From: a virus
Virus genome (UHGV): UHGV-0250353
Direction: 5' to 3' (one strand)
Length of the DNA: 45,006 nt
Of the stretch, positions 1-45,006 are shown piece by piece (positions within the stretch are counted from its first letter, which is position 1; the number at the start of each line of letters is the position of its first letter). The notes below the pieces were generated by a model that saw nothing but the letters and a program-made list of their open reading frames with translations, was not told where the DNA came from and ran no database searches. Both the position numbers and the translations under genes were made by a program.

Positions 1-786
1 ATTTGGGGTAATAGCGAAAGATGAAGCCAAGCTCCCGTCGTAACTGGATGTTGTCCTCTGCTTGAACCACGCCGAGTTGCCGAAATTATTGCTAAAAGTA
101 AGTATGTTTTCCGCTGCGGTTTCAGGGGGGACGCGCCCGGCGGCAACACCACCGATAAACGTAAGAGGCCATTCATTGGTGGTGGACTGCACAAGATTGC
201 CGTTCCGGTTGATATAATAAACCCGCGGCCCGTCATACACAACGCGGCTATCAAGAGTCGACGCCAGAAGGTTAATCGGTGGGTATCCTGCAGGCCCTTC
301 ATTGCTCCAGATGCGCGGGAACGTCGTTTCGTAGTTAGCATATATTTTCATGAAACTGCCCAGACGATCCCCGTAACAGCCGTACAAATCCGGAAGATTC
401 TTCGTAAGGCATGTATCTTCCTGAATAGCTGTTCTCTCTGCCGTGGCGGTGAACGTAATTACCCAGTTCTTACCGTCGTCGGTGCTATCACTAATCGTCG
501 ATGTGATGAGTATCTGGTGGTCCTCGATGCCCATACCTGTATCATGCGGCATGATAAACGAGGACGCACCGCCGTCGATGTTGTTCAGGAAGCTATAAAA
601 CGCCTGGCGCCCGAGAGAAGACACTACTAGCGTTACGCTAATTGGTACCGGTTCAAAGTACGTGTCTCTCCCCTGGCGGGGTAAGCCGCCCTGAACCTCT
701 GTGCGCCAGATATTACTCCCCCTTGTCTGAGAGTACCCCTTCGACACTATAGGCTTTAAACTTGTTGGAAATCTTAAAGAAGACAT
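1..786 (-). CDS. tail protein, 5' part of a gene that runs off the left edge (262 codons present)
   Basis: ATG at 786 with AGGAG RBS 9 nt upstream; reverse frame open to position 1; directly follows tape measure in tail module; frame is continuous with open reverse frame 44407..45006 if the sequence is circular. Confidence 0.5.
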   Translation of the reverse strand, partial: MSSLRFPTSLKPIVSKGYSQTRGSNIWRTEVQGGLPRQGRDTYFEPVPISVTLVVSSLGRQAFYSFLNNIDGGASSFIMPHDTGMGIEDHQILITSTISDSTDDGKNWVITFTATAERTAIQEDTCLTKNLPDLYGCYGDRLGSFMKIYANYETTFPRIWSNEGPAGYPPINLLASTLDSRVVYDGPRVYYINRNGNLVQSTTNEWPLTFIGGVAAGRVPPETAAENILTFSNNFGNSAWFKQRTTSSYDGSLASSFAITPN

Positions 787-821
787 AGTAAGATACTCCT
801 ATTATTTTAGGAGATACTAAC

Positions 822-1472
822 ATGATACCCACAGAAAAAGTAGCTAAGAGTATGTGGCTGCGCGCGAATTATCCCGCGAACAAAAGCAGCAAAACTAGGC
901 GTGCAACTATATGCGATTTTGGCATAAATGATGCCGATTATGTGGTTAGTCCTAAGATAAACGGCAACCGTGAGCCGTGTCCTGCGTACGCTACGTGGCG
1001 AGGGATGATCCAACGTTGCATAGACGTCGAGTATAAAAACAAAAGACCTGCATACAAGGATGTAACTGTGTGGCATGGGTGGCAAAGGTTTATGTCCTTC
1101 CGTAGATGGTGGCTTTGTAATTACGTAGAAGGATGGGAACTAGATAAGGACTTATTCTCTGGTATTAATAAGATATACAGCCCCACCACTTGCATTTTTA
1201 TTCCGCAATGGTTGAATGTTTTTCTACTGGAAAGGAAAAATAGTGGGTCACCTACAGGTGTTTTTTATGAAGAATCAAGAGGTAAATTTAAAGCCTCAGT
1301 GAAATATGAGAAAAAAACTATTAATCTAGGACGTTTTGAAACTCAGGAAGAAGCGCTAGATGCCTACATCGCTGAAAAGATAAGGATAGCAGAATCAAGA
1401 AGATGCGAGATAGAGGCGATAAGAGAAGGTATGTTCGCCCGCGTTATCGCCTTGATAAAAGAGGGGCGTTAG
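822..1472 (+). CDS. AP2-domain putative homing endonuclease-like protein
   Basis: ORF track 216 aa; GGAG RBS before ATG 822; AP2-like segment GVFYEESRGKFKASV...LGRFETQEEALDAY; opposite strand to flanking tail genes. Confidence 0.5.
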   Translation: MIPTEKVAKSMWLRANYPANKSSKTRRATICDFGINDADYVVSPKINGNREPCPAYATWRGMIQRCIDVEYKNKRPAYKDVTVWHGWQRFMSFRRWWLCNYVEGWELDKDLFSGINKIYSPTTCIFIPQWLNVFLLERKNSGSPTGVFYEESRGKFKASVKYEKKTINLGRFETQEEALDAYIAEKIRIAESRRCEIEAIREGMFARVIALIKEGR

Positions 1473-1481
1473 CCCCTACCT

Positions 1482-3791
1482 TTAATACCCCGGCTGACCG
1501 CGAGTAGAGCGGCGAGCTTTAGAAATCGGTGAGTTGTTATCCTGTAACTGCGACGCTACTGTTTCACTGATTATAATACGTAAACGCCCTTCGTCATCAC
1601 GTTCTGTTACAGCAGAATCTACGCGCCCCGTAGTGTTATTAACTATAGTGACGTTATCACCGCCGGACTGGCCACCGTTTTGCCCCATAATCTCTTTCAT
1701 CTGCTGCGCAGTTCGTACGCGCGATGCGCCAGCAGGCATGATAACTTCCGGTTTGCCGCGTTCTGCGATGGTAGACATCTGCCCCGCTGATAACTGACCG
1801 CCCTGCTCACGTGCCGAGCGGATTTTGGCGATATTAGCCAGCCCCGCGGCAACGGCAGTACCTGCGGCAACCGGTGCCAGGAATGGGCCGACAACCGGTA
1901 TCGCTGCGGTAGACTTATATGCTTCGATAGCCGAGGTGTATGTTGCGATAGTGGCCTGGGCAATAGCAAACGCTTTATACGCGGTGGACGCCTCGCCAAA
2001 TGCCGTTTTAGCATTAGCTGCCATGTCACCGAAAGAACTACCTAAAGCCTCGGCGCGCTTCGTAGCATACTGCTCATTGATAGCGTTAAGCGCCGCCTGA
2101 TACTGTTCCTCGTTAATAAGCCCCTGTTCTCGATACTTATCAGCGACAGCCAGTTTCTGCTGTTCCTGGATGTCGAGGAGCTCAAGCTCAGCGGCGTTCT
2201 GCCCCATAATCTGGGCCATGAAGTCATCGCCTTTCTGCTGCTTTTCCTGCTGCTCTTTTCTTTTCTTATCCAGTTCTTCCTGTCTGGCCTGCTCGGCTGT
2301 GAGCATAATTTGAGTTTTGGCGTTTTCGTATTGCTGCTGGCTTATCGTTCCTGCGCGGTTGAACTCTTCAAGTTTTGCCAGTTTCTGCTCTTCGGCCGCC
2401 GTGATGCGAGAAATTTCATCTCCGGTTGTACGGTCAACCGTAGCAAGGAAATCTTCCGCGGCTTTCTTCTGGCGTTGTGCCGCCGTTTCTTCACGTTTGG
2501 CCTGCGCCGCCAGACGTTTCTCGTTCGATTTAGCCTCGCGGTCTGCCTTCTCTTTCTCGGTCTTGTCAATGCGGGCGATGTCTTGCTGTGCTTCCGTGTC
2601 ACGAGCAGCATTATACGCGGCGATCTGTTCTTTGGTTACAGCTTCACGTTTAGCAAACGCCTGCTTATCCAGTTCAGCTTGCGCCCGGATGCGCTCACGG
2701 TCGCTTAAGATGGCGATTTGCTGATTCTTGACGATAGCTTCGTTCTGCTCCTGGAACCTCTGCGTGGTTGAGTTAACGTTACGACCGAGATTCTTTTGGG
2801 CTTCCGCCGCTGCGTTTGCGGACTTCTCCGCGTTCTCCAGTGCTGTGGCGTTCTTGTTGGCGTTGTCTGTCAGGCGGATAAGTTCCGGATTCAACTGTTT
2901 TGTGTTACCGAGCCAGTCGGTAAACACATCGGCGATGCGGCGGGCATTCTCGGCGGTTGGCTCTTTGTTAAACGCGCTCTGCGCCGCTATCATCTCCAGC
3001 GCCTGGTCACGGTTAACCCCGAACTTACTGCTAAGCTCCGCTATATTCTGCGCCAGCATGTTGACGCCTACGATGTTACCCTCGTAAGTGCCGCCAAGTT
3101 TTTCTAACGTGTCGCCTACATCCGCACCCTTAGAGACCAATGCATCGTACTGGCTAATAGCGGATGCCGTGGAGGCTTTCCATGTCTCCCATGACTCGGC
3201 GTCCTCGCGGACAGCTTTAGCTGTTTGCTGCGCGATAAGGTCTGCGTTAGCCTTAGCCAGAGCAAGCTGAGTCTCCGCCGCTTCTCTGCTGATTTGGGTA
3301 AGCTGGATAAGGCCGTCTGTCAGTTCGAGGGAGCCAGATGCCGTTTGCTGGAAGGTGTCTTTTAACTGTTTCTGCGCGGCTTCCAGGTCTTTTGAACTGC
3401 CTTCTGCTTCGGTTAGCGATTTGTACAGGACACCGCCGATTGCCGAAGCAAGAGCAATCACAGCCCCGAGCACCGCGCCACCAGGTCCGAAAGCACCAGC
3501 AAGCTGCGAACCTTGTTGCCCGATTGCTACGAATGCAGACGTGCCGGATTGCAACTGGACTACCATGTCCTGCACCTGGAAGCCAACCTGCCCTGCAGCG
3601 TTACGGAACTTAGCGAAACCGTCGGAGGCCGCTTTAGACGTAGCGGAGTTTACTTTATTAACGTCCGGCGTTAGTTTGTTTACGGATGTGTCCGCCCGGT
3701 CTGCGGATGCCGCCATAGCGTCAAGCTGTTTAGCGGCCGCATCAGCGCCTTCTGTTTTTACTCTGGCAATTAGGGAAGCCGTATCAGCCAT
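1482..3791 (-). CDS. tail tape measure protein
   Basis: about 770 aa Ala/Gln/Glu-rich coiled-coil protein immediately downstream of chaperone pair; ATG 3791 with GAGG RBS preferred over TTG 3806 used by ORF track. Confidence 0.8.
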   Translation of the reverse strand: MADTASLIARVKTEGADAAAKQLDAMAASADRADTSVNKLTPDVNKVNSATSKAASDGFAKFRNAAGQVGFQVQDMVVQLQSGTSAFVAIGQQGSQLAGAFGPGGAVLGAVIALASAIGGVLYKSLTEAEGSSKDLEAAQKQLKDTFQQTASGSLELTDGLIQLTQISREAAETQLALAKANADLIAQQTAKAVREDAESWETWKASTASAISQYDALVSKGADVGDTLEKLGGTYEGNIVGVNMLAQNIAELSSKFGVNRDQALEMIAAQSAFNKEPTAENARRIADVFTDWLGNTKQLNPELIRLTDNANKNATALENAEKSANAAAEAQKNLGRNVNSTTQRFQEQNEAIVKNQQIAILSDRERIRAQAELDKQAFAKREAVTKEQIAAYNAARDTEAQQDIARIDKTEKEKADREAKSNEKRLAAQAKREETAAQRQKKAAEDFLATVDRTTGDEISRITAAEEQKLAKLEEFNRAGTISQQQYENAKTQIMLTAEQARQEELDKKRKEQQEKQQKGDDFMAQIMGQNAAELELLDIQEQQKLAVADKYREQGLINEEQYQAALNAINEQYATKRAEALGSSFGDMAANAKTAFGEASTAYKAFAIAQATIATYTSAIEAYKSTAAIPVVGPFLAPVAAGTAVAAGLANIAKIRSAREQGGQLSAGQMSTIAERGKPEVIMPAGASRVRTAQQMKEIMGQNGGQSGGDNVTIVNNTTGRVDSAVTERDDEGRLRIIISETVASQLQDNNSPISKARRSTRGQPGY

Positions 3792-4170
3792 CTTCTCTGC
3801 CCTCAAATATTCCGTCTAAGCCCATGATAACCTCGGCTTCGAACAAACTTATGCCGTAACCGGCGACATCACGAAACGCTACCAAATCTTGCCATTTGAG
3901 CGCATCGCGCGGGATTATAACGATAGTATCATCTGTTTCGCGCTGTAGGAATTTAATGGCACGGTATTTCTCGAACACGTCGATAAGAGAAACGGGGCAT
4001 TCTGGCCCCGTCGCTTCTTTCATCTGCGGTTCTTTAATCACACCCATTGCGATCAAAGCTGCTTGATGCCCCGCCGCGATGTCGTCGAATTGCTTACGTT
4101 TCTGGCGGTCGACAAAGCACCATTGCGCAAATTCATACAGCGCTTTTACTTTTCCGAGAGTTTCTCGCGG
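3784..4170 (-). CDS. tail assembly chaperone, -1 frame extension (GT-like fusion partner)
   Basis: reverse frame -1 relative to 4146..4562 is open from 4170 to stop 3784..3786; no ATG of its own (track start is TTG 4056); overlaps GGAAAAG at the last codons of upstream ORF. Confidence 0.4.
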   Translation of the reverse strand, partial: PRETLGKVKALYEFAQWCFVDRQKRKQFDDIAAGHQAALIAMGVIKEPQMKEATGPECPVSLIDVFEKYRAIKFLQRETDDTIVIIPRDALKWQDLVAFRDVAGYGISLFEAEVIMGLDGIFEGREDG

Positions 4171-4562
4171 CTATCGGTGTGGTGTTTAACTACGGCTTCT
4201 GCCAGTCCGCTGTACTGGTCTAACAGGTTAGCCAGCGCCTCTTTGCTGAACGGCTCGTCGAATGACCAACCGGTGACGATGTCGACAGCGAGCTGCTTGT
4301 TCAGGTCCATCACCCGCCAGCCCTTCTCATCGTTATAGCGCGCCCAGTTATTCAGCGCCTCGCACTCTTTATCTAATGGCGCAAGTTCTTCCGTAAGGCG
4401 TCGAATTGCCGTTGTGTAGGCGCGGCCTGCACGAACACCCGCATCACAATCGGGGCCAATGACCTGCAGCCATTCGCCGGAGTCTTTACCGCTCGGCAGG
4501 AGGATAGGCATTTTAGTACCAGTAGCGTGGCGGTCGGCAAAATAAAAATCAGAAAGTTTCAT
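4146..4562 (-). CDS. tail assembly chaperone (G-like)
   Basis: 138 aa ORF, ATG 4562 with AAGGA RBS; position between major tail protein region and tape measure; followed by -1 frame ORF. Confidence 0.55.
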   Translation of the reverse strand: MKLSDFYFADRHATGTKMPILLPSGKDSGEWLQVIGPDCDAGVRAGRAYTTAIRRLTEELAPLDKECEALNNWARYNDEKGWRVMDLNKQLAVDIVTGWSFDEPFSKEALANLLDQYSGLAEAVVKHHTDSREKLSEK

Positions 4563-4669
4563 TCTTTGATCCTTTGGTTAAGAGGTTACAGGTTAAGGTT
4601 GACGCGCCAGACGGGAACCACCCGCTTTTCGTGTGCGACACTAGGCGCAAACTTATTCTAGCACACTAC

Positions 4670-4698
4670 TTGCACACCCCAATATAATAGGGTACTAT
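4670..4698 (+). promoter_or_regulatory. sigma70-like promoter TTGCAC-N17-TACTAT with palindromic operator TAATAGggtaCTATTC (4685..4700)
   Basis: hexamers and spacing read directly; same architecture as minus-strand promoters at 24746..24774 and 26253..26281. Confidence 0.5.
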
Positions 4699-4728
4699 TC
4701 ACCTACACCAACAATGGAGGGATTTAAA

Positions 4729-4920
4729 ATGTCAAGTTTACCAGTTTCCTTAATTCTGTTTGCACTTCTCGCTTATTTCGCGCCTTTCCTGGTTGCGTAC
4801 TTCCGTAATCATAAAGCGAAGTTGGCAATATTCATGGCTAACCTGTTTCTTGGCTGGGTTCTGCTGCCGTGGGTATTTATTTTAATATGGGCTTGCAACT
4901 CGAACGTGAAAGAGAAGTAG
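4729..4920 (+). CDS. small two-TM membrane protein, superinfection-immunity (Imm)-like
   Basis: GGAGGG RBS then ATG 4729; two hydrophobic helices; FRNHKAKLAIFMANLFLGW...WVFILIWA resembles Imm-type small membrane proteins (from memory, not searched). Confidence 0.45.
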   Translation: MSSLPVSLILFALLAYFAPFLVAYFRNHKAKLAIFMANLFLGWVLLPWVFILIWACNSNVKEK

Positions 4921-4958
4921 GCTACTATAAGACAAATCCTAAACACGAGGAAGTAAGC

Positions 4959-6089
4959 ATGGCCCATAAGAAAATAACCGACGAACAGTTACAGGAAGAA
5001 TTGAACGCCGGAATGAAGAATGCAGACATCGCCCGTAAATACGGCATCTCAGACCGCGTAATTCGTATCCGTAAAGCGAAGCTGGCTAAGAAAGGCGTAG
5101 GCCACGGGCGTGACGTTAGTCACCTTGTCCCGGACGGCTACAAAATTAAAGGGACCTCGTCACTGGTGGACGAGTTCGGCAACACTAAACTTCAATGGGT
5201 TAAGACCGACACCGATGCCGAACGTCAGGTCGAGTTGATGAAAGCCGTAATCGAAGGCATGAAGTCGGAGATTACTCCAGTTGCACCAGTTAAAGCCGTT
5301 CGCGCCAAACGTGACGATAAACTACTCAATCTTTACACGGTATCTGATTTCCATCTCGGTATGCTGGCCTGGGCCGACGAGAGCGGCGACGACTGGGATA
5401 TGAAGATTGCGGAAGACCTGTTCTCTCGCTGGTTCGATGCTGCGTTCCAGAAAGCGCCAGATGCAGGAACAGGAGTTATTAACCTGCTTGGCGACCTTGC
5501 GCACTTCGATAGTCTGGATGCCGTTACACCTGCAAGCGGCCATGTTCTTGACGCGGACACGCGCTATCAGAAACTGGTCCGCTACATGATTCGTATGGTT
5601 CGCCGTGTTATTGATATGGCGCTGGTTAAGCATAAAAATGTTCGCTTGCTTATCGTGCAAGGGAACCACGACGAAAGTGGAATGATTTGGTTAGCTGAGA
5701 TGTTCAGTACGCTGTACGACAATGAGCCGCGTGTGTTTGTCGATACTTCACCAGATGTTTACAAGATGGTGCAACACGGCAAAACGACGCTGTTCTTTAC
5801 ACACGGGCATAAATGCCGGTTTGAGGTTGTCGAACCAATTATGATAGCTAAGTTCAGAAAAGCATTTGGAGAAAGCGAGTACAGTTACGCGCATGTAGGG
5901 CATCTCCACCATCAAAAGATTGTAGAAAGTAGGAATATGGTAGTGGAGCAACATCGCACTCTCGCGGCGAAAGATGCATATGCTTCCCGCGGCGGGTGGA
6001 TGTCTAAGAGGTCCGCTAATGTCATAACCTATAGTTCAGAGTTCGGGGAAGTAGGTAGGCTTTCAATCTCACCGGAGATGCTAAGATGA
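4959..6089 (+). CDS. HTH domain fused to calcineurin-like metallophosphoesterase
   Basis: GAGGAAG RBS then ATG 4959; motifs DFHLG, GDLAHFD, GNHDES, THGH, GHLHH in canonical order; N-terminal ADIARKYGISDRVIRIRKAK HTH-like. Confidence 0.7.
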   Translation: MAHKKITDEQLQEELNAGMKNADIARKYGISDRVIRIRKAKLAKKGVGHGRDVSHLVPDGYKIKGTSSLVDEFGNTKLQWVKTDTDAERQVELMKAVIEGMKSEITPVAPVKAVRAKRDDKLLNLYTVSDFHLGMLAWADESGDDWDMKIAEDLFSRWFDAAFQKAPDAGTGVINLLGDLAHFDSLDAVTPASGHVLDADTRYQKLVRYMIRMVRRVIDMALVKHKNVRLLIVQGNHDESGMIWLAEMFSTLYDNEPRVFVDTSPDVYKMVQHGKTTLFFTHGHKCRFEVVEPIMIAKFRKAFGESEYSYAHVGHLHHQKIVESRNMVVEQHRTLAAKDAYASRGGWMSKRSANVITYSSEFGEVGRLSISPEMLR

Positions 6090-6556
6090 AGTACCTTGAT
6101 GTTTCAAAACAATTTAAATACTGCCCTGATACGGGGCAGGTTACCAGGATATCTACTGGTGCTGAGGTTGGTACGGTTGGTGTAAGAGGATATCTGTGCT
6201 GCGGTATGGGTGGTAAAACAGTATATGTCCACCGCGTAGCATGGTGTCTTTATAATAAATGTGACTTAGACAGGAAAACACAAATAGACCACATAAACCA
6301 TAACAGGCTAGACAATAGAATAGAAAATCTACGCGCCACCGACAATACAGGGAACAGTAAAAATAAAACTATGAGAAAGATAAATAAATCCGGGGCTACA
6401 GGTGTAAGTTTCCACAAAGCCGCGGGTAAGTGGCGCGCGTTTATAAAAGTTAACTACAAACAAGTGCATTTAGGGCTTTACGACGATTTTGATGTAGCGG
6501 TTGCCGCGCGTAAAGCCGCTGAGAGTAAATACGGTTTTCATGAAAACCATGAGTAG
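6086..6556 (+). CDS. HNH homing endonuclease with AP2-like domain
   Basis: HRVAW...QIDHINHNRLDNRIENLR HNH motif; GVSFHKAAGKWRAFI AP2-like; ATGA overlap with upstream gene. Confidence 0.75.
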   Translation: MKYLDVSKQFKYCPDTGQVTRISTGAEVGTVGVRGYLCCGMGGKTVYVHRVAWCLYNKCDLDRKTQIDHINHNRLDNRIENLRATDNTGNSKNKTMRKINKSGATGVSFHKAAGKWRAFIKVNYKQVHLGLYDDFDVAVAARKAAESKYGFHENHE

Positions 6557-6567
6557 GAGAGCTATTT

Positions 6568-6798
6568 ATGACTTCAAAATATAACCGCACAATGACAAAT
6601 ACCCACGGCAGCACTATGACAGTAGACGTTTATGATGTGCTGCGGGCCTTCGACATCCGCGACCCAGCACTGCAACACGCTTTGAAGAAATTATTGTGCA
6701 TGGGCTTGCGTGGACACAAAGACACCGGGACGGACTTAGCGGAAGCAATTGAAAGTCTGGAGAAGTTACGAGAGTACCGGAGTAATATTGATGAGTGA
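6568..6798 (+). CDS. hypothetical protein
   Basis: ORF track 76 aa, RBS GGAG upstream, inside island operon. Confidence 0.5.
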   Translation: MTSKYNRTMTNTHGSTMTVDVYDVLRAFDIRDPALQHALKKLLCMGLRGHKDTGTDLAEAIESLEKLREYRSNIDE

Positions 6799-6967
6799 AA
6801 ATATTATGAAAACGATATATGTAATCCGTGTATACGACGAAGAATGGGACGAGTGGGTTGATATTTACGCTGTAGGTAGTAAGGAAGAGGCCTCTAAAGA
6901 GATGGCAGAACGGAGTGACCGAGGTCAGTTAACTAACTTCTACGAAATGCCATTCAAAAGTGAGTAA
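6791..6967 (+). CDS. hypothetical acidic small protein
   Basis: in-frame ATG 6791 overlapping stop of upstream gene; ORF track frame 6749..6967. Confidence 0.45.
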   Translation: MSENIMKTIYVIRVYDEEWDEWVDIYAVGSKEEASKEMAERSDRGQLTNFYEMPFKSE

Positions 6968-6970
6968 GAA

Positions 6971-6996
6971 AAGGCCCCGAAAGGGGCCTTAGTTTT
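6971..6996. terminator. bidirectional intrinsic terminator AAGGCCCC-GAAA-GGGGCCTT + TTTT
   Basis: 8-bp GC stem, tetraloop, T-run on plus and A-run upstream; sits between convergent genes. Confidence 0.6.
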
Positions 6997-10040: not shown

Positions 10041-10042
10041 TT

Positions 10043-10555: not shown

Positions 10556-10558
10556 AAA

Positions 10559-17238: not shown

Positions 17239-18474
17239 TTAAAGTGCGAAACGAACTGGGGTATTGATAACAGGGCGGACAACAGGGAACAACCTATGCA
17301 TACAATAGCCTAAACTGTCATTCCAGTCGTCGATAGCTGGGTGAGTTTTAAACTTCTCCGGTTCACCATTATCGTTATACCCCTGCGTCTCTAGTGACTG
17401 CGTTAATTTAGGGCATTTTGAAGTGTTAATCCTCAAACGGCTATGTGACAAAAGCGCGTTAACCGCGTTTATTCTGTCTTTAACGAATGGGTTCTTACTT
17501 GGAGCGTTAACACGTAAGCCGGCCTTTTCGATGATACCTATGTCGGATAATGATGCATTAGTGTGGCCCGAGCGACCAGAGGCGTCAGGGTAAACCGTAA
17601 CCGTATGGCCCGGATACCGTATCCTGACATTATTGACGAAGTCGTCGGTATTATGGCTGACAAACTCATCAACAACCGTCGGGTTGCCGTCTTCAATAAC
17701 GCTCACGGTGGCGCAACAGCCGCCGATGTTAAAGTCCAACCCTATGTGCAGAGCGTCTCCATTCTGCAAGGTGCGGGTGGAGTCATGTGTGCTTCGTTTG
17801 AAATAGTGATACACCTTATTGGCCGTCAAACTGACAAATTCACCGTTGATATACATATCGGCCAAAGCCGCGTCGTAGTTCCTTCGTATCTGCTCGACGT
17901 AGCCTTCAGGTAAATATGGGTTCGACAATGTAGATGCCTTAATCAGTTCCGTAGAACTGTCGGCGTTAGTAACCCAATAGTCATACACAAATCCGGAGAA
18001 TCCCTGGTCAGGTGTAGTCACGGCGGCAATACTGTTCCCGCCCCTACACGGTTGTCGGGTACGCTCTGAAATCTTACGCCACACCAGAGACGCCTGTTCT
18101 TTAGTAAGCACGTCAAGTTCGTCTGCGACAGAATGCGCCACCTCAAAAGCGATTAGACGGTTCGGGTTGTCGTATGACCTGAAAAACATAGTACCGTAAC
18201 CTTTAACATGGATACTGTATTCTGATTTGTTGAGGTCATACTTAAGCCCCATCATATTCAGGTCATCAACCACACCGGGAATGGCACGCAGCTTCAACAG
18301 GTCATACGTGGGCATGGTGTACAGGGTGTTTATCCCTCGCTCTCGCAACATGAGATACAGGAGACGCATCGTGGCCGCGCGGGACTTGCCTGCCCCCAGT
18401 CCAGCGACAATAGCTGGATGTGTCTTTGTACTGAATACAAAGTCCTGTTGGGGTTCTGTTAATGGGATATCCAT
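17239..18474 (-). CDS. terminase large subunit
   Basis: Walker A GLGAGKS, Walker B VADELD, C-terminal nuclease-like half. Confidence 0.85.
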   Translation of the reverse strand: MDIPLTEPQQDFVFSTKTHPAIVAGLGAGKSRAATMRLLYLMLRERGINTLYTMPTYDLLKLRAIPGVVDDLNMMGLKYDLNKSEYSIHVKGYGTMFFRSYDNPNRLIAFEVAHSVADELDVLTKEQASLVWRKISERTRQPCRGGNSIAAVTTPDQGFSGFVYDYWVTNADSSTELIKASTLSNPYLPEGYVEQIRRNYDAALADMYINGEFVSLTANKVYHYFKRSTHDSTRTLQNGDALHIGLDFNIGGCCATVSVIEDGNPTVVDEFVSHNTDDFVNNVRIRYPGHTVTVYPDASGRSGHTNASLSDIGIIEKAGLRVNAPSKNPFVKDRINAVNALLSHSRLRINTSKCPKLTQSLETQGYNDNGEPEKFKTHPAIDDWNDSLGYCMHRLFPVVRPVINTPVRFAL

Positions 18475-36447: not shown

Positions 36448-36477
36448 GCACACACCAACAATATAAGGAATTGAGAA

Positions 36478-36669
36478 ATGAAACACGAATATGACCGCAA
36501 ACCCGCACGTGACATCGTACCTGGTGACATGATTTTCAACGTTAAGACCCGTCGTCCTGTTGCCGTTGATACGGTGTACGTCGAGTCGAATGGTAAACTG
36601 GTTATCGAAGATGTAACTGGTAACGTTACGGCGTTCGGGCGTAAAGAGTTAGTTCTGGTGGCGAAATGA
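36478..36669 (+). CDS. hypothetical protein
   Basis: ORF track 63 aa. Confidence 0.5.
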   Translation: MKHEYDRKPARDIVPGDMIFNVKTRRPVAVDTVYVESNGKLVIEDVTGNVTAFGRKELVLVAK

Positions 36670-37349: not shown

Positions 37350-38766
37350 GTTTCAAAGGCGCGAGTACCAGAAACTCATGACTTCGTTCATGTTGCGGCA
37401 CCATCGCTGTAACATATGGGCGAGCATGGGCGCCGGGAAGACTGGCAGCGTACTGTGGGCATTAAACCGACTGTTCCGCAACGGTCAAATTAACGATGAC
37501 GACCGCGTGTTAATCCTTGCCCCGTTGCGCGTTGCGTCCGGCACATGGCCAGCAGAACAAGAAAAATGGCAATTCCCGTGTCTACGTGTCGTCGATGCAA
37601 CTGGTTCGGAGAAGCGCCGCATCGCGGCGCTGGAGTCTGACGCTAACGTGGTGTGCACGAACTACGAAGTTATCGAGTGGCTGATTGACTACTACGGCAA
37701 AGACGACTGGCCTTTTACGGTTATCGTTGCCGATGAGAGCACGAAACTGAAGTCATTCCGCAGCCGTTCTGGAGGTAGCAAGCGGGCAAAGGCGCTCAGC
37801 AAAGTGGCGTTCGGTAAAGTTAAGCGTTTTATCAACCTGACTGGTACGCCGTCGCCGAACGGCCTCAAAGACTTGTGGGGTCAGAACTGGTTTATCGACG
37901 CTGGCGAGCGCCTGGGGTCGTCGTACACGGCATTCACCGACCGATGGTTTAACTCTGTACAGAAAGGCAAATCCGCGATGGCGCGTGAGTATCATGCGCG
38001 CCCTGGCGCGGATAATGAAATTCACCAGAAGATGAAGGACATCAGTCTTACGATTGATGCCGCTGAGTGGTTCGGTTGTGAAGCGCCGATTATTGTTCCA
38101 GTTGAAATCGACCTGCCGAAGAAAGCACGTCAGGCGTACATCGATATGGAGGAAAAGTTATTCGCGGAACTGGAGAGCGGGGAAGTTGAAGCGGCTAACG
38201 CGGCGGCGAAGACGTCGAAGTGTTTGCAGATTGCATCCGGTGCCGTATATGTATCCGGGCCAGACGGCGACGCAACCAAAGACTGGGAGAAAGTGCACGA
38301 CACGAAACTTGATGCTCTTGAGTCAATTGTTGAGGAGTTACAGGGTTCGCCGCTATTGGTGGCCTATCAGTTCAAGCACGAACTGGAGCGTATCCTTAAG
38401 CGATTCCCGCAGGCGCAGGCGTTTTCTAAAGGTGCGAAGGGTAATAAGCAGATGGAAGCGTGGAACCGAGGAGAGATACCTATGCTATTGATACACCCAG
38501 CCTCCGCAGGCCACGGGCTGTCGCTACAACACGGCGGGCATCACATGGCTTTTATGAGTCAGGGATGGAACCTGGAACACTATTTGCAGGTTATCGAGCG
38601 AATAGGTCCGGTAAGGCAGATGCAGTCTGGGTACAAACGGTCGGTATTCATTTATCAAATAATAGCCCGAGATACTCTTGATGAAGTTGTCTCCGCTCGT
38701 ACAGACGAGAAAAGGTCTGTACAGGACGAACTACTTAACTATATGAAGAGAAGGAGTAAGAAATGA
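37342..38766 (+). CDS. SNF2-like superfamily 2 helicase
   Basis: Walker A GAGKTG, motif II VIVADESTK, motif V-like LLIHPASAGHGLSL; ATG 37342 (ATGA overlap). Confidence 0.7.
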   Translation: MSKFQRREYQKLMTSFMLRHHRCNIWASMGAGKTGSVLWALNRLFRNGQINDDDRVLILAPLRVASGTWPAEQEKWQFPCLRVVDATGSEKRRIAALESDANVVCTNYEVIEWLIDYYGKDDWPFTVIVADESTKLKSFRSRSGGSKRAKALSKVAFGKVKRFINLTGTPSPNGLKDLWGQNWFIDAGERLGSSYTAFTDRWFNSVQKGKSAMAREYHARPGADNEIHQKMKDISLTIDAAEWFGCEAPIIVPVEIDLPKKARQAYIDMEEKLFAELESGEVEAANAAAKTSKCLQIASGAVYVSGPDGDATKDWEKVHDTKLDALESIVEELQGSPLLVAYQFKHELERILKRFPQAQAFSKGAKGNKQMEAWNRGEIPMLLIHPASAGHGLSLQHGGHHMAFMSQGWNLEHYLQVIERIGPVRQMQSGYKRSVFIYQIIARDTLDEVVSARTDEKRSVQDELLNYMKRRSKK

Positions 38767-39092: not shown

Positions 39093-39119
39093 AAGGCCCC
39101 AAACGGGGCCTTAGTTTTA
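39093..39119. terminator. bidirectional intrinsic terminator AAGGCCCC-AAAC-GGGGCCTT + TTTT
   Basis: near-identical to terminator 6971..6996; between convergent replication arm and tailspike. Confidence 0.6.
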
Positions 39120-40955
39120 GATAGATACATTACCAGCAACCTTCCACACACCAGAGCCAACATGAACCCATTTATAAGGTTGCCCTGCAATCGGCGTAAT
39201 AAGCTCCCATCGTGCCCCGTTTCCGAATTGTGTAACCGACACGTCAGGCGGAACGCTCCCGTATACGTGTGCAATGCCATTAATGAGGTACCCGGTAGCA
39301 GTCCAGGATGAAGTACCCCAAACGGTGTAATTACCATTATAGTGTGAGTAGTTTAGCCATGATGTTGAAGCCCCCCACAGGACTCTGGAAGCCTCCGGTG
39401 CAACAGTGTTATCAATGTTAAGAGTAGTGTCATTAACTTGCCAGTATTTGCTAGTATGTGAGCCAGAGAACTCTGGTAAGTAACTTGCTGTAATCGTCAC
39501 ACCGCATTGTGTAAATATGCATGCAACCACACCTGTATCCACAAGGTTAACACCACGGAACCCATTAATAACCATTCTTGACTGATTACACTCAAAGAAA
39601 CTTCCGTGTATTTCTTCGGCCCCACAGCCATCCATCACTACACTAGTACACCCTAAGAATACATAAGCGGAACCAGTTACATAATCCGCGGCACAACCTT
39701 TAAGATTGGAATAAGTAATGTTAGTAAACTTATATGCCCAACGGGATACATTCCTGACATAAACATTATTTAAGTTAAAGGTCGTACCACCAGTATCTAC
39801 AGAAATACCATCTTGAACATCTTTAATGAGAAGTGAATCAAACACCTGAAGCCAGCTATTACTTGTTCGGTACCCTGTCATCACGTTTTCTATATACAGG
39901 TCTTCTAATCGAACCATGTAACTAATCGCGCTATAGATGCCATAGGCATTTTTGGCGGGAGCAGCTCCAATTAAGCTCATCCCAGTTATTCCTCCGGAAC
40001 GACTAAAGTTACCGGTTAAATCACCAGCCTCACTGGAATCCATATCTATAGCGGCGATAAAATCAAGCGAAAAGCTATGCGGCGCACCCTGCCATATACG
40101 ATCAGGAACTGTTTTAATATCGTTGCCTGTTTTGCGTAGGCCGCAGGAGTCTCTGCCAATCCCCTCCCACATGACGCGGGGAGGGCGTATAGCTCCATAC
40201 TTAATATCATAAAAATCTGAGAATCTTAACTTACCTCCAGTCTGTGGAAGGCAAGAATGAATACGCTCAAGAGCTTCACTGTTTTGCTCAGCTGTACGAG
40301 ATGCCATCATGCCGCCGTTCTCTACCGGAATATCGATGTGGCTTCCTGCTCTCTTCCAGCGCTTACCTCCGGGGGTAACAAAAATATTCACACCATCATC
40401 AGCTTCAGAACTGGAAAAGGCTATAAATGTTCCTCCCCCAAGCCCGGGTGTGTCAGAGTAGTAGCCGCGTACCGTGATAACTTGGTTAGATACGGTTGGT
40501 TCTATCGTCCGCAGAGTAGCCACATCGGGGCAAGTTCCTACTAATTTTTCTCCGTCGATTTCGGATAATTCTTCGCGTAAATTCGGGTCGGTCTGCGGCT
40601 TCCAGTTAAAGTTACCAACCGGGTTAAATGATGCGGGGACAACAACCGGCAACGTACCCGCATACGAGTACCACGTCTTGCTTACAGGGTCATACACCAC
40701 TTTGTCGCGGTCATTAACTGTTAACGTACCGCCGGTGGAAAAGTCCCACGATACAGGAGAAAAACCTGCATCGCGCAACACGGCCGGAAGCGTCTTCTGT
40801 GTCTGCCCGGTAACCTGATTTGTCGCGTAATCGATATCAGCGCCACCAGCAACACCACCGGATTTACCGGTGATAACTTCGGCTTCGAAAATCTGGTGCT
40901 TCTTGGCGGTTTGCAAATCCGCCAGGCTTAGAACGTCACCGCATCCGCTTGACAT
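39117..40955 (-). CDS. tailspike / tail fibre with beta-helix-like repeats (putative depolymerase)
   Basis: 612 aa, last gene of tail module; repetitive Gly/Asn/Val-rich middle typical of parallel beta-helix; GAGGA RBS. Confidence 0.6.
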   Translation of the reverse strand: MSSGCGDVLSLADLQTAKKHQIFEAEVITGKSGGVAGGADIDYATNQVTGQTQKTLPAVLRDAGFSPVSWDFSTGGTLTVNDRDKVVYDPVSKTWYSYAGTLPVVVPASFNPVGNFNWKPQTDPNLREELSEIDGEKLVGTCPDVATLRTIEPTVSNQVITVRGYYSDTPGLGGGTFIAFSSSEADDGVNIFVTPGGKRWKRAGSHIDIPVENGGMMASRTAEQNSEALERIHSCLPQTGGKLRFSDFYDIKYGAIRPPRVMWEGIGRDSCGLRKTGNDIKTVPDRIWQGAPHSFSLDFIAAIDMDSSEAGDLTGNFSRSGGITGMSLIGAAPAKNAYGIYSAISYMVRLEDLYIENVMTGYRTSNSWLQVFDSLLIKDVQDGISVDTGGTTFNLNNVYVRNVSRWAYKFTNITYSNLKGCAADYVTGSAYVFLGCTSVVMDGCGAEEIHGSFFECNQSRMVINGFRGVNLVDTGVVACIFTQCGVTITASYLPEFSGSHTSKYWQVNDTTLNIDNTVAPEASRVLWGASTSWLNYSHYNGNYTVWGTSSWTATGYLINGIAHVYGSVPPDVSVTQFGNGARWELITPIAGQPYKWVHVGSGVWKVAGNVSI

Positions 40956-40967: not shown

Positions 40968-43535
40968 TTAACTAAAACCGTTGCTGAATCCGTCGGAGAA
41001 ACCGCGACCGAAAGGCGCGACGCCGTCGTATTTGTAGAAGTCCGCTTCGTAGTTAATCCCGGTAATCTTAACTGTTCTGTCGTCTCCCGGGTCAACTGTA
41101 GAAACAAGAATCATCTGAGCATTATGCCTTGCTTCGTTGCCGAATGAAAACTCAGTTTTTAGCGCACTATTACCCGCGTAAATTGCTTCTTGAGGTGCGG
41201 ATAACATAATCACCTCGCGATCGTGACTTCCAGGAACCACCGCGACGCTCTGAACTCCGCCATCTCGCCTCTTAAGAATCAATGAGTGGTCGTCTCCGGG
41301 GGTAAACGTAACAGGTTGTGATAGCGTCAGCGCAAGCCCATTAATGGCAACAACATAGCCATCTTGCGGGGCCATACGCGAACCTTTTACCACACTTACC
41401 GCACGCCCAGGCATTGCAAAAACCCCTTCTTCTGTCGCCGTGAATGATACTGTTACCTTCTTCAACAGGTTTTTCTGGTATCGACGATATGCGGACCAGT
41501 ACGCCTGTCGATAATTACGGATACCTTTAGAGTCATACGTTTCTGTGTTGACTCCACCTTCCGCTGGAATACTAATAGTCTCTTTGACGTTAGTATCTGG
41601 GTCGATGTAGGAGAATTTGAGACTATCGTATACCTGAGCGTCGTTAAACGTGCGTGTCCACTTCTCCGTAGCGGTAGTTTTGCTGCGGTGGGTGAACACC
41701 ATTTCAGGCCCCATTCGAGGGCGTTCGAAATCCAGAAGAATATCGGCACCTCTACGGTATGGGGTGCAGAAAATTGCTTCCGCTATCGTAGTTACTATGT
41801 CCTGCATAGTAGTTTTGTAATCATCGAATGTGTAGCAGAATTGCCCTGCCTCGGCGTTCCCGAAATAACTTTCAATCTCAGCCTGCGTGGCCAGCAACTT
41901 ATCCATGTTAGCCGTGGTGAGATTGAGGTTTCCTACAACTGGGTCGCGAGCAAGCCGTATCAGGGACTGCACTGCCTGTGTGTTAGGTGTCATAACTGTA
42001 TCAAAAACACCGTTGCCCAGGTACTTGTACACCATCTCGGTAGCTACCATGCGCAATTGAGGCTGTTTAACCTCTGCGGCGCGGGGTGTCTGCTTACGCG
42101 CAGAATGTACCGTTGTACGGTTGCCATAGTGAGGGGTGCGGTCTATTGACTGCCCGTAGAGGTTTACATAAGTAACTTCGTCGACAACTGTACCTTCGAA
42201 ATCAAGGTCCAGATTGGTAACACGGCGCATACGAACCCGAACTTTAGACGGCGAGGGGAGGTCGGCGTATATTGTAACGCCAGTGTAATCCTGGCTACGG
42301 CCTGTAACTGTTCCTTGTTTTGTGTACACCGGGCCATACGGTTGCCCGTCAACATCCAGTAACTGGTACTGCATTTCAACGACAACAGATGCCCGTGTTT
42401 TATTCTCACCGTTGTCCTTGTACATGCCGTTTGCCGCAGCAACGTTAGTTACCACTCGTTCTACGTTTATGCGGTTGATATAAGCCCAGTCTGTAAGGCT
42501 GGCGGTATAGGTATCCTGCGGCCCGATCAGATGTTTACCCTGAACGTTATCTATGGGGTACGCCGTTGTCCCTATTAAATTCCATTGTGACTGGTTGTTA
42601 GAAATATCAACTACCAGGGTAGTGTCACTAACAGAAATAACTGGGTAATAACCGGAAAGATTTACCTCACCGCCAAGGCCGCCAGGAGTAGTATCTGCAA
42701 ACACTCCATCAAAGAATGCTATTTGACCAACAGAAAGAACATCATAGAATCCTGCGTCCGGTCCGGTAACTGTGCCAGTTGAGCCAGAGCGCTGTACGGT
42801 GAACAACCCAACATTAACCTGTACGTCATTCTGGGCTTTAAGTACTACGCCATCTACTTCGTTTGACGCTACGGTGATGTAAAGCCCCTGATCGATAGGG
42901 TCTCCGATGCGTAATTGTGGTGTGCTAGTGTTATTTGGCGACGTGAACGGTGTGTATATTTCTACCGAAGTGCCCGTGATTTCTTGTACTCGCGTATCAC
43001 CGTCTGTTACATCTTCCGGTTTAATATCCAGATACCCACGCCCGGCGTCATAGTAGCCGTATTCAACGACCGTACCAGATGCATTGAACACCTTGTAAGT
43101 GGTCATAAGGTCGTTAGGGATGGTCTGAACCCTGCCGCAGATGTCATAAGTTCGCTCGTATGGGCGAGCTTTGTTGTTGCGGTCGGTCAGACTATTGTTA
43201 GGGGAGTCGGCTTGCTGGTTAGCAAGATTGTTAGACACGCCCTTCGTTGACGGTGTGAGTAATTTAGCTAGCGGTTTAAGGATGATGCTGAATACTTTCA
43301 TCACGCCTTTGACTACCCCGCCGCCAGCACCTTCCAGGACGTGAAAAACGGCATCCTGTTTTAATGCGTCAAAATCTTCTGTTACGTCGTTATCCTCTCC
43401 TATTTCTTCGAGGAAAACGCGAAACGGCACACCATCAGGGATATGGTTTACGACGAAATTCAGCGGCGAGTCGTTATGCCGTTTTTGCGTAAACGTCCCG
43501 TCTTCGTTACGGGTGTAGTGGATGACTATCGCCAA
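40968..43535 (-). CDS. tail tip / central fibre protein (J-like host specificity protein, putative)
   Basis: 855 aa directly after NlpC/P60 K-like gene; TTG start with AGGAG RBS. Confidence 0.55.
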   Translation of the reverse strand: MAIVIHYTRNEDGTFTQKRHNDSPLNFVVNHIPDGVPFRVFLEEIGEDNDVTEDFDALKQDAVFHVLEGAGGGVVKGVMKVFSIILKPLAKLLTPSTKGVSNNLANQQADSPNNSLTDRNNKARPYERTYDICGRVQTIPNDLMTTYKVFNASGTVVEYGYYDAGRGYLDIKPEDVTDGDTRVQEITGTSVEIYTPFTSPNNTSTPQLRIGDPIDQGLYITVASNEVDGVVLKAQNDVQVNVGLFTVQRSGSTGTVTGPDAGFYDVLSVGQIAFFDGVFADTTPGGLGGEVNLSGYYPVISVSDTTLVVDISNNQSQWNLIGTTAYPIDNVQGKHLIGPQDTYTASLTDWAYINRINVERVVTNVAAANGMYKDNGENKTRASVVVEMQYQLLDVDGQPYGPVYTKQGTVTGRSQDYTGVTIYADLPSPSKVRVRMRRVTNLDLDFEGTVVDEVTYVNLYGQSIDRTPHYGNRTTVHSARKQTPRAAEVKQPQLRMVATEMVYKYLGNGVFDTVMTPNTQAVQSLIRLARDPVVGNLNLTTANMDKLLATQAEIESYFGNAEAGQFCYTFDDYKTTMQDIVTTIAEAIFCTPYRRGADILLDFERPRMGPEMVFTHRSKTTATEKWTRTFNDAQVYDSLKFSYIDPDTNVKETISIPAEGGVNTETYDSKGIRNYRQAYWSAYRRYQKNLLKKVTVSFTATEEGVFAMPGRAVSVVKGSRMAPQDGYVVAINGLALTLSQPVTFTPGDDHSLILKRRDGGVQSVAVVPGSHDREVIMLSAPQEAIYAGNSALKTEFSFGNEARHNAQMILVSTVDPGDDRTVKITGINYEADFYKYDGVAPFGRGFSDGFSNGFS

Positions 43536-43891
43536 AATTCAATCTCCTGATATGTGTCGCGTAAATCGTCCAGACGGTCGAGACGCACTTGTCTGGACGC
43601 TAACTCGCAGTGGCTTACCATTCCATCATAATACACGCCCGCATGCCACACTACACGCCCTCGGTGATAAGTACCAAGCAACACGGCGTCATAATTCTGC
43701 GGACTGGCAGCGCGTTCCAGACCTTTCGGGTCGGAGTGCCCTGCATCAAACGCCGAGTCTATCGCAGTTGGTGATGTTACGTCGAAAGCTGGCGTAGATA
43801 GCCCAGCATCACCGCGCACCCTGCGTACGTGATGCCAACAATTGTAGCGACGAAAGTCATAAGGGAGGCCCGTATAGGCAGTGATACTCAT
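43526..43891 (-). CDS. tail assembly protein with NlpC/P60-like motifs (K-like)
   Basis: YNCWHHV and WHAGVYYDG Cys/His motifs; ATG 43891 (ATGA overlap) preferred over upstream start. Confidence 0.55.
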   Translation of the reverse strand: MSITAYTGLPYDFRRYNCWHHVRRVRGDAGLSTPAFDVTSPTAIDSAFDAGHSDPKGLERAASPQNYDAVLLGTYHRGRVVWHAGVYYDGMVSHCELASRQVRLDRLDDLRDTYQEIEFWR

Positions 43892-44403
43892 GACAAAAGT
43901 ACCCCACGCAACAGCGGTATTTCTTCCGGTGTCATCAGGATTCCTGTCTGCCGTTGGTTGAGCATAGGCGTTCCGGTCTCTGCGGTGAACACGCCTTTTT
44001 CTTGCGTCAACGTCTGCAACTCGTACACTACAGGGCCGTCGCACGGGTACGACAGGTCTGTGCTTACGTATCTTCGAAATATGAATTTAGGTAACTCTGT
44101 ATTGCTATACGGGATGCGGTCCATCTCTTCATCGAGAATGTTAAGAACATCTGGCAGTGAGAACGAGGCCGTCTGGTCCATATCATTATTGTTCGCGGCG
44201 TTCTTGGCGTCCATCGGCGTGGCCTCGAACGTAACAGTTTCGCCAGTTTCAAGAGTGGCGGTAAGGTCAGACGTCCCGCGCACAAGCAACCACCGCTTCG
44301 AGAGAAGCGGGTGCGTTATTTCAAGAGTAATGTAATCCAGTTCGCCGTCTGGGTTTGATGCCAGCTTACGGCGATAGGCTGCTTCTACTGATTCCTGACT
44401 CAT
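43888..44403 (-). CDS. minor tail protein (L-like, putative)
   Basis: 171 aa between boundary-spanning tail gene and K-like gene. Confidence 0.5.
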   Translation of the reverse strand: MSQESVEAAYRRKLASNPDGELDYITLEITHPLLSKRWLLVRGTSDLTATLETGETVTFEATPMDAKNAANNNDMDQTASFSLPDVLNILDEEMDRIPYSNTELPKFIFRRYVSTDLSYPCDGPVVYELQTLTQEKGVFTAETGTPMLNQRQTGILMTPEEIPLLRGVLLS

Positions 44404-44406
44404 AAG

Positions 44407-45006
44407 TTAACCGTCCACATTAAAATCAATACGGGTTATATATTTACTACCCCACGCAGAATCCGCTTGGGGGATGGTGGCGTAGTTATCTACTGCGGGC
44501 ACGTTTACGGTAGAACCATCAGAGTATGTAATGTCGATGCTTGTCGCACCATTCATGGCTACTTTTGCCGATGCCATAGGTCTTGCTACCGGTGATGCAT
44601 CGGTTACTATTGGCGATGTGGAGAACTCGCCTTTTTCTATTTGAGGCGAGGACACGATGATGCCACTGACACCATCGCCAGCAAACGATGATACGGTCGC
44701 TGTTTGGTAAACCCATACCGCCAGATTTAAGCCGCTGAACCCACCCGACGGACCAGTTACTGTTTCAGTAGCCCGATACCATCCGCCTCCTATAGATGTT
44801 ATTGTGGAGTATGCTTCGCCATCTACAATGGCCCCGGATGTAAGGTTTACTATCGCGGAAGAGATGTGCGTAGTGTCCTGATTTGCCGCGCGGAGTCTGG
44901 CGAAATCATACCCATTCGCCTTAAAAAATACACTGAATGTGTATTTTTCACCTTCTAAAATCTGTGCGGAAACGGTCTGGTTAACTGTGTGAACACCTGT
45001 GTCCCC
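44407..45006 (-). CDS. tail protein, 3' part of a gene entering from beyond the right edge (200 codons present)
   Basis: reverse frame open from 45006 to stop at 44407..44409 with no in-frame start except GTG 44655; same frame modulo 3 as ORF 1..786. Confidence 0.5.
   Translation of the reverse strand, partial: GDTGVHTVNQTVSAQILEGEKYTFSVFFKANGYDFARLRAANQDTTHISSAIVNLTSGAIVDGEAYSTITSIGGGWYRATETVTGPSGGFSGLNLAVWVYQTATVSSFAGDGVSGIIVSSPQIEKGEFSTSPIVTDASPVARPMASAKVAMNGATSIDITYSDGSTVNVPAVDNYATIPQADSAWGSKYITRIDFNVDG

Follow-up and report, generated by a model that had tools for sequence, protein, structure and literature searches.

Circular map of the genome

The window, that is the whole stretch of 45,006 bp that was analysed, is a complete genome that was assembled as a circle; we put the probability of this reading at about 90%. 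The base at which the circle is opened is arbitrary and lies at codon 262/263 of the gene for a distal tail protein (Dit or DTP). The cut between 45006 and 1 is a bookkeeping artefact from storage, and there is no biological feature at this position. Features of the genome are listed in Table 1.

Table 1 Features of the window and the matches on which their assignment is based
Feature	Position	Strand	Basis or remark
Genome map, uncultured Kagunavirus-like E. coli siphophage (likely)	1..45006	.	Circular; ends are an arbitrary opening
Dit/DTP gene, 5′ part	1..786	-	Codons 1-262; ATG is the reverse complement of 784-786
Free-standing HNH/AP2 homing endonuclease ORF, 216 aa	822..1472	+	phrog_953 HNH endonuclease, E 6.5e-65; Pfam AP2 weak
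Tail tape measure protein (TMP)	1482..3806	-	phrog_1538, E 8.7e-196; ENA product 769 aa
Terminase large subunit (TerL)	17239..18474	-	Pfam Terminase_6N/6C (weak)
Terminase small subunit (TerS), 170 aa	18474..18986	-	phrog_3064, E 2.8e-72
141-bp end duplication of k141_37393	38331..38471	.	Opening point of that assembly, inside the SNF2 helicase gene
Tailspike, 612 aa	39117..40955	-	Several tail-spike PHROGs at the N terminus; PF27114 Phage_tail_beta on the ENA gene call
J-like central tail hub protein, 855 aa	40968..43535	-	phrog_469, E 1e-247; phrog_31 central tail fiber J, E 4.5e-19
Minor tail protein, 121 aa	43526..43891	-	phrog_329 minor tail protein, E 4e-13
Minor tail protein (DUF1833), lambda L / Sf11 BHUB1 position	43888..44403	-	PF08875, E 6.9e-15; phrog_396, E 2.3e-53
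Dit/DTP gene, 3′ part	44407..45006	-	Codons 263-461 and TAA at 44407-44409

The strongest evidence comes from a MEGAHIT contig in ENA, ERZ27264761:k141_37393. This contig has 45,147 bp and an exact direct terminal overlap of 141 bp, which is the k of the assembler. It was rebuilt whole from three pieces (L009, L010 and L006). Without the overlap it has 45,006 bp, and a comparison with the rotated and reverse-complemented window gave 0 mismatches. The junction from 45006 to 1 is crossed by piece L006 with 100% identity over 17,462 bp. A terminal k-mer overlap is the criterion for circular viral contigs in tools such as CheckV and VIBRANT. A second ENA contig, ERZ27264767:k141_59889, comes from a separate sample assembly and is also 45,147 bp long; one of its ends was compared, which lies inside TerL at window position 18303 and is 100% identical to the window over 12,559 bp. 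In addition, Scaffold_170 (ERZ28643909) and one Logan contig span the junction at 99.95-99.97% identity.

The junction is also present in known phages. A 921-nt probe across it is contiguous in five GenBank phages (AV104, Ivi, CR01, M01 and AMO_3701M), and Ivi is contiguous base for base at the join, with window 45001 corresponding to Ivi 24055 and window 1 to Ivi 24049. A whole-genome blastn comparison with Ivi was collinear all round the circle and covered 73% of the window; the ends of the Ivi record map to ~24-25 kb of the window. The segments without Ivi alignment that were examined are the HNH ORFs, part of the TMP gene, TerL, the methylase and the C terminus of the tailspike, and, judged by sequence, these are divergent alleles or HNH insertions. 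The window itself has no terminal direct repeat and no 12-mer that is common to both ends, and IMG/VR contained no exact match to the 36-nt junction or to the first 40 nt of the window. The longest exact internal repeats (~31-35 bp) are far from the window ends, and so is an internal repeat of ~150 bp with 87% identity at ~13.94-14.09 kb and 26.45-26.59 kb.

The initial annotation had proposed a complete circular genome that is opened in a tail gene, based on a window length that is a multiple of 3 and on an ORF of 462 codons that runs from the ATG at 786 to position 1 and resumes in frame at 45006 up to the stop at 44407. All of this holds: the length is indeed 45,006 bp, the coordinates are exact, and the overlap of k141_37393, the junction-spanning genomes and the collinearity with Ivi agree with the circle. 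Foreign or stop-bearing flanks, which would speak against it, are not seen in k141_37393, which continues from 45006 to 1 in the same frame and leaves the gene intact. The joined ORF has 786 + 600 = 1386 nt and encodes 461 amino acids plus a stop; the junction is located between amino acids 262 and 263 (SFAITPN before and GDTGVHT after it), and an AGGAG Shine-Dalgarno motif is found 9 nt upstream of the ATG. The fused protein aligns without a gap over the junction to WPK33101 of AV104 (454 aa) and XXK85813 of Ivi (461 aa, equal in length). The identical 461-aa protein (P0001) was called as one intact gene on four independent public contigs.

These data are best explained by a looped path made by the assembler, which shows up as the contig whose ends overlap by k = 141 bp. 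This overlap was then trimmed and the circle re-opened at an arbitrary base in the distal tail protein gene; the two gene parts at the window ends are thus one intact gene. In this respect, the window resembles other metagenomic circular contigs with a terminal overlap, in which the overlap equals k (here 141), trimming gives the unit genome and the start is arbitrary. The difference is that the window has already been trimmed and re-rotated, and the overlap is invisible in it. The window is thus best handled as a circle in which the end fragments are one gene and not truncated genes, pseudogenes or genome termini, and feature scans near the ends should take the rotated sequence.

Packaging and the ends of the virion DNA

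By analogy to related phages, the virion probably contains linear DNA with terminal redundancy and circular permutation, which would be packaged from concatemers by a headful (pac) mechanism. Headful packaging would then account for the circular assembly of such genomes and for the lack of fixed termini in relatives. PhageTerm predicts pac packaging for Shashou (PMC6776780) and headful packaging for Schulenberg (PMC6763661), and the TerL of K1G/K1H-like siphophages, which is of the usual Guernseyvirinae type, groups with those of headful phages (PMC5582158). No termini were found in fBC-Eco01 (PMC9825357) and vB_EcoS-179_3 (PMC13507304).

The TerL of the window is a minority allele: at least 99% identity was found in only eight phage records. 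AV104, hz69 and phage 26 carry this allele (at least 99%; phage 26 99.3%), whereas Ivi carries the other one. The identity is ~40% to the usual Guernseyvirinae TerL and 73% to that of Plesiomonas phage phiP4-7. A PDB sequence search with TerL gave no match, and the score against NCBIfam TIGR01547 (PBSX) was 51 bits, under the cutoff of 105. Shashou and Schulenberg are outside the set of records with at least 60% identity to the TerL of the window, and the PhageTerm-based literature therefore most likely deals with a different terminase allele. For the allele of the window no published termini analysis was found; the papers on AV104 and Henuyfy11N are without one, and in the BASEL paper PhageTerm appears solely in the reference list.

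Of the alternatives, the one that survives best leaves the circular map as it is but places fixed ends of the virion DNA elsewhere (cos ends or a short, exact repeat at the termini); they could lie close to the terminase genes, for instance, or at the boundary of the early region at ~24.5-26 kb. The virion DNA would then not be physically permuted, and a collapsed repeat, or metagenomic reads of concatemers or replicating DNA, would have produced the circle. Circular contigs do not tell packaging types apart, and the divergence of TerL, with no termini analysis published for it, leaves room for such ends. Moreover, the records of Ivi, fEg-Eco06, fEg-Eco19 and Ro145c2YLVW start near window 24.4-25.5 kb, which is either convention or a real end. 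However, the starts of the records in the genus are scattered over TerS, TerL, the DNA polymerase gene, the TMP region and the early region. The two contigs of this genome have their breaks at different positions, one within the helicase gene and the other within TerL, with overlaps that fit the k of the assembler. Phage 26 (MZ832314) shares the TerL allele of the window, and its record begins inside the DNA polymerase gene and bears the annotation 'circularly permutated genome'. Together with the pac, headful or missing termini of the relatives, this makes fixed ends unlikely, and headful packaging stays the preferred explanation.

Circular metagenomic contigs are also known from DTR or cos phages, where they come from repeat collapse and concatemer reads.

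Relatives and nature of the circle

From its sequence, the window is likely the genome of an uncultured, virulent, Kagunavirus-like (Guernseyvirinae) E. coli siphophage from metagenomes. The nucleotide identity to known phages is ~88-91% over ~61-78% of the window (megablast, any single record); on this sequence comparison, the phage is under the usual 95% species line. Similarity to members of the genus, estimated as identity x coverage, is roughly 60-70% overall and synteny is complete. The ICTV guideline for a genus is ~70% genome-wide nucleotide similarity, against which this value is borderline. AV104 (OR352935), hz69 (ON556632), Ivi (PV841871) and phage 26 (MZ832314) have the same gene order all round, ~42-46 kb and ~50% GC, and two of them, AV104 and Ivi, also share the long Dit gene of the window. 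The window differs from them by the additional HNH/AP2 ORF, the C terminus of the tailspike (39120-40562), early genes and the hypervariable cassette of Dit. A tRNA scan found 0 tRNAs, and there were 0 Rfam matches at gathering thresholds in the window. With the window, a further Kagunavirus from metagenomes, new at the level of species, would be represented by a complete genome; it joins the minority allele of the terminase to the long distal tail protein.

Instead of the genome of a virulent phage, a circle of this kind could also be an excised prophage or a replicon that is plasmid-like or in a carrier state. Indeed, a close relative was deposited as a circular, non-mobilizable 'plasmid' of 44,086 bp, pC16EC0033-2 (CP088689.1), from a clinical E. 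coli isolate. This is very improbable for the window, since none of 5,426 complete E. coli genomes and only one of 72,556 plasmid records matched, and the gene content is a complete set for virion, lysis and replication. The window is also collinear with the complete genome of Ivi, whose annotated gene list shows no integrase, and a virulent lifestyle is described for the genus (PMC11990801, PMC13507304).

Even less probable is a false circle, closed via an internal repeat or by a chimeric join, with a segment of the genome lost or wrongly joined. In De Bruijn assembly, repeats can lead to closed loops, and the window contains the ~150-bp repeat. However, the 141-bp overlap of k141_37393 is single-copy in the genome and lies within the helicase gene, away from the repeats. 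In addition, every module of the complete relatives is present in the same order, the size of 45.0 kb fits their 42-46 kb, and the two separate sample assemblies agree in length; on these grounds, false circularisation through a repeat was rejected. A last reading takes the genome as incomplete or linear and the ends of the window as true ends, physical or of the assembly, with a fusion that is in frame by a chance of 1 in 3. This is an a priori possibility to which only the lack of a terminal repeat in the window could be added, and it is refuted with next to no probability left by the 17.5-kb stretch of an independent contig that passes through the junction with 100% identity, by the other junction-spanning contigs and the 0 mismatches to k141_37393, by the exact protein intact on four contigs with gap-free homologues of the same length, and by the continuity of Ivi over the join.

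Tail module

With the circle closed, the split gene follows the tape measure gene and precedes those for the hub proteins, all on the minus strand. The order given in the initial annotation, in our terms TMP, Dit, the DUF1833 protein, the 121-aa protein, the J-like protein and the tailspike, is correct, but the HNH/AP2 ORF was not mentioned. It is inserted between the TMP and Dit genes and is missing there in AV104 and Ivi. The label 'K-like NlpC/P60' for the 121-aa protein is not supported: profile searches detected no NlpC/P60 or MPN domain and indeed no family in Pfam (E ≤ 10) or NCBIfam, and only phrog_329 was found. The J-like hub protein matches gp14 (BHUB2) of Sf11 in the PDB (9occ_E, E 5.7e-16).

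Distal tail protein and comparison with known systems

Sequence and structure predictions identify the product of the split gene as a distal tail protein similar to gp17 of Sf11, with a Dit fold, an adaptor helix and a C-terminal appendage. The ring domain and adaptor helix would comprise ~aa 1-160 (window 307-786), and the appendage starts near aa 165. The full-length AlphaFold2 (AF2) model was poor at aa 1-224 (pLDDT <50), but aa 1-164 modelled alone with short-form homologues reached a pLDDT of 71.8, which is of moderate confidence, with aa 14-42 poorly predicted. With this model, the top Foldseek matches were the DTP chains of Sf11 (9occ_C/D, E 2e-5 to 4e-5, TM 0.48-0.62), followed by the tail-tip chains of T1 (9l9p_H) and lambda gpM (8iyk_E). 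A PDB sequence search with aa 1-167 gave no significant match, and the link to Dit is through fold comparison only. The appendage, on the other hand, is readily found by sequence: aa 165-459 match Sf11 gp17 (9occ_C, 160-457) with an E value of 2.7e-104.

Sf11 gp17 (PDB 9OCC) is a distal tail protein of the virion and its adaptor helix binds the tailspike (PMC12724387). The genes for both proteins follow directly after the TMP gene, the lengths are 457 and 461 aa, the appendages are homologous, and the predicted N-terminal fold is the same, with a long helix at aa 126-155 at the place of the tailspike-binding adaptor helix of Sf11. In contrast, the N-terminal 167 aa of the window protein have no detectable sequence similarity to gp17 and only 16-18% identity in the structural alignment. 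For this reason the appendage is a module that is common to two otherwise unrelated Dit domains. Location in the virion and binding of the tailspike are known for Sf11 gp17 only.

The Sf11 structure paper ascribes no function to the appendage of gp17 (PMC12724387). In the window, the appendage includes a beta-sandwich similar to the GTA spike fibre and to carbohydrate-binding modules (CBM) at aa 222-405 (window 44578-45006 and 1-123). This region scored 102 bits against NCBIfam NF048003 (GTA_spike_fiber; cutoff 36) and matched the head spike fibre Rcc01080 of RcGTA (PDB 6TB9) with an E value of 1.4e-9, and Foldseek found CBM4/16/27/61. The appendage is present in only ~11% of the matching phage records. 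One may tentatively suggest, from sequence and models, that it is a hypervariable, horizontally exchanged candidate for glycan binding and more than a part of the structural ring, although the odds are rather against it. If true, this would give the phage a second, six-fold receptor-binding device beside the tailspike, for example for the reversible capture of O-antigen or capsule.

The 'evolved Dits' of siphophages of Gram-positive bacteria have inserted carbohydrate-binding modules. The Dit of the window would resemble them in carrying an additional CBM-like beta-sandwich. However, the module of the window is a C-terminal extension and not an insertion into the galectin domain.

Opening of the circle within a tail gene

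The window is 45,006 bp long, a length divisible by three, and has a GC content of 50.4%. A minus-strand reading frame starts at an ATG (complement of 784-786), preceded at a distance of 9 nt by AGGAG, and stays open as far as position 1; it continues in frame at 45006 and ends with a TAA at 44407-44409. When 45006 is joined to 1, the two parts make up a single ORF of 1386 nt for 461 aa, in which the junction separates residue 262 from residue 263. Recomputation of the start codon, the in-frame join and the length of 461 aa plus stop agreed with the initial annotation. No terminal repeat is present, and not even a 12-mer is common to both ends of the window.

The join is real. The fused 461-aa protein is found exactly (100% identity, 100% coverage) in a public protein collection and is the product of a single, unsplit gene call on four contigs, including the metagenome contig ERZ27264761:k141_37393 (ENA; MEGAHIT, 45,147 bp), which was rebuilt whole from three overlapping pieces. 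Since the 141 bases at its start are identical to the 141 at its end and base 142 differs, the overlap has the length of the assembler's final k. Minus this overlap, the contig is 45,006 bp long and, once rotated and reverse-complemented, agrees with the window at every base (0 mismatches); its opening point is at window 38331-38471, within the SNF2 helicase gene, and it crosses from 45006 to 1 without a break. The contig from a second sample, ERZ27264767:k141_59889, is also 45,147 bp long, ends within TerL (window 18303) and shows 100% identity to the window in the 12,559 bp compared. One circle thus has three different opening points, and the one of the window is therefore arbitrary.

A 921-nt junction probe is spanned contiguously in the GenBank phages AV104 (OR352935, 90.8%), Ivi (PV841871, 88.9%), CR01, M01 and AMO_3701M. 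In alignments of the fused ORF with the proteins of AV104 and Ivi, there is no gap at the join (..SFAITPN followed by GDTGVHT..), and the ORF and the Ivi gene are equally long. When the window was compared by blastn with the complete Ivi genome, position 45001 aligned to Ivi 24055 and position 1 to Ivi 24049; the join is therefore contiguous base for base in Ivi. Both genomes are collinear around the whole circle, and the record ends of Ivi map to an uninterrupted part of the window, at ~24-25 kb. That the circle was closed falsely through an internal repeat is very unlikely, because both the longest exact repeat (~31-35 bp) and a ~150-bp repeat of 87% identity (at ~13.94-14.09 kb and 26.45-26.59 kb) lie away from the ends of the contigs. 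The k-overlap contig with 0 mismatches, the relatives spanning the junction and the collinearity with Ivi confirm the earlier proposal of a complete, circular genome opened inside a tail gene. Such a split is an ordinary result of how circular assemblies get stored; knowing of it helps to annotate the genome correctly, but it is no surprise.

Both copies of the ~150-bp direct repeat are intergenic. One is located in the divergent-promoter gap (26218-26686) that separates the early gene block from the late one; the other is flanked by the spanin gene and a head-region gene of 153 aa. The exact core of 31-35 bp is GTTCATACTTCACAAGCTCAGGTGGAGCTTA; no Rfam match was found for the repeat.

Features of the tail module, the packaging genes and the repeats
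Feature	Position	Strand	Remark
Dit C-terminal appendage, aa 165-461	1-294 + 44410-45006	-	
HNH/AP2 homing endonuclease ORF, 216 aa	822-1472	+	phrog_953, E 6.5e-65; AP2 domain weak
Tape measure protein (TMP)	1482-3806	-	
HNH-type ORF	6086-6556	+	free-standing
~150-bp direct repeat, copy 1	~13939-14085	+	~87% identity
TerL	17239-18474	-	minority allele within Kagunavirus
TerS	18474-18986	-	
~150-bp direct repeat, copy 2	~26447-26593	+	~87% identity
HNH-type ORF	~30.6-31.1 kb	+	free-standing
Tailspike	39117-40955	-	
J-like hub protein	40968-43535	-	
121-aa minor tail protein	43526-43891	-	
DUF1833 minor tail protein	43888-44403	-	

Identity of the phage

The genome is that of a Kagunavirus-like (Guernseyvirinae) E. 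coli siphophage, with TerS, TerL, portal, capsid, tail, lysis and replication modules; tRNA genes and Rfam families were not found in the window. Many records match each 25-kb half of the window with 88-91% nucleotide identity over 61-78% of it, which is under species level and, by nucleotide criteria, borderline for genus, with full synteny. A prophage was considered and rejected because there was no match to the window among 5,426 complete E. coli genomes. The record of a circular, non-mobilizable 'plasmid' of 44,086 bp from a clinical E. coli isolate (blood; CP088689.1, pC16EC0033-2) is a Kagunavirus-like genome; its positions 1-12867 are 89.8% identical over 65% of window 26000-38000, and it is probably a carried-over phage, or one in a carrier state, rather than a genuine plasmid. 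Ivi (10270-10791) and phage 26 (MZ832314; 18939-19460) carry in the head-gene block an opposite-strand 'beta clamp / DNA polymerase III' ORF of ~173 aa, which is absent from the corresponding site of the window (14133-14173).

DNA packaging

A circular assembly is expected from headful-packaged, circularly permuted genomes; direct terminal repeats or cos ends yield one too. We consider it probable (roughly 0.7) that the virion DNA is circularly permuted by headful packaging, and the evidence from relatives points to this mode. PhageTerm gave pac for Shashou (PMC6776780) and headful for Schulenberg (PMC6763661), TerL of K1G/K1H-like siphophages groups with headful phages (PMC5582158), and no termini were found for fBC-Eco01 (PMC9825357) or, in a 2026 study, for the 43-kb relative vB_EcoS-179_3 (PMC13507304). 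The phage 26 record is opened inside the DNA polymerase gene and labeled 'circularly permutated genome', an annotation and not an experiment. The window TerL is only ~40% identical to the usual Guernseyvirinae TerL; therefore, most published packaging predictions probably concern another terminase. Only 8 phage records, including AV104, phage 26, hz69 (ON556632), LM02P1, BCH953P1 and Ec1-ASingh, have this allele at at least 99% identity, and TerL of Plesiomonas phage phiP4-7 is 73% identical. Window 17275-18558 (TerL region) has no nucleotide match in Ivi. Judged from these comparisons, the packaging cassette looks like one that was horizontally exchanged.

The tail module

The split gene directly follows the TMP gene and precedes those for the DUF1833 protein, the 121-aa protein, the J-like hub and the tailspike, all on the minus strand. 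Profile and structure matches uphold this order, already given in the initial annotation, but its label 'K-like NlpC/P60' for the 121-aa protein found no profile support. Missing from that account was the HNH/AP2 ORF, which separates the TMP gene from the Dit gene and runs in the opposite direction; near-identical metagenomic contigs also have it, and AV104 and Ivi lack it at this site. Altogether, the window has three free-standing HNH-type homing endonuclease ORFs. The tailspike has 612 aa, vs 490 in AV104 and 745 in Ivi; its N terminus is conserved with relatives and the C-terminal ~480 residues (39120-40562, minus strand) have no nucleotide match in Ivi. This would fit a swap of the receptor-specific enzymatic domain.

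The distal tail protein

Sf11 gp17 is the hexameric distal tail protein of a Shigella siphophage, in which residues 3-165 form the ring and a helix that docks the tailspike, followed by a large C-terminal appendage without known function (PMC12724387). The protein of the split gene is a Dit of the same architecture, since the best structural matches of an AF2 model of residues 1-164 (pLDDT 71.8, long helix at 126-155) are chains of Sf11 gp17 (TM up to 0.62, E 2e-5 to 4e-5); T1 and lambda tail-tip chains come next.

Residues 165-459 match gp17 by sequence (PDB 9occ chain C, E 2.7e-104). Within them, the region 222-405 scores 102 bits against the NCBIfam GTA_spike_fiber domain model (cutoff 36) and also matches 6tb9, the head spike fibre of RcGTA (E 1.4e-9). 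Where the full-length model is confident (225-390), it is similar to carbohydrate-binding modules and to E217/Pa193 phage baseplate chains. The appendage may have a glycan-binding role. Among 27 homologues compared, conservation extends over residues 1-222 and 404-461, and the cassette between them, 223-400, is hypervariable and contains the window break. The long form is present in only 62 of 586 matching phage records; the others (Jerseyvirus, K1G, SZH-1, Serratia Eta) match over the first ~160 residues only. In myophages of ~145-150 kb, weaker homologues of the appendage (26-33% identity) lie within 'tail carbohydrate esterase' or tail fibre proteins.

Residues 1-167 have no sequence match to gp17 or any solved structure. 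The window Dit and Sf11 gp17 have the appendage in common, whereas their N-terminal domains are without sequence similarity.
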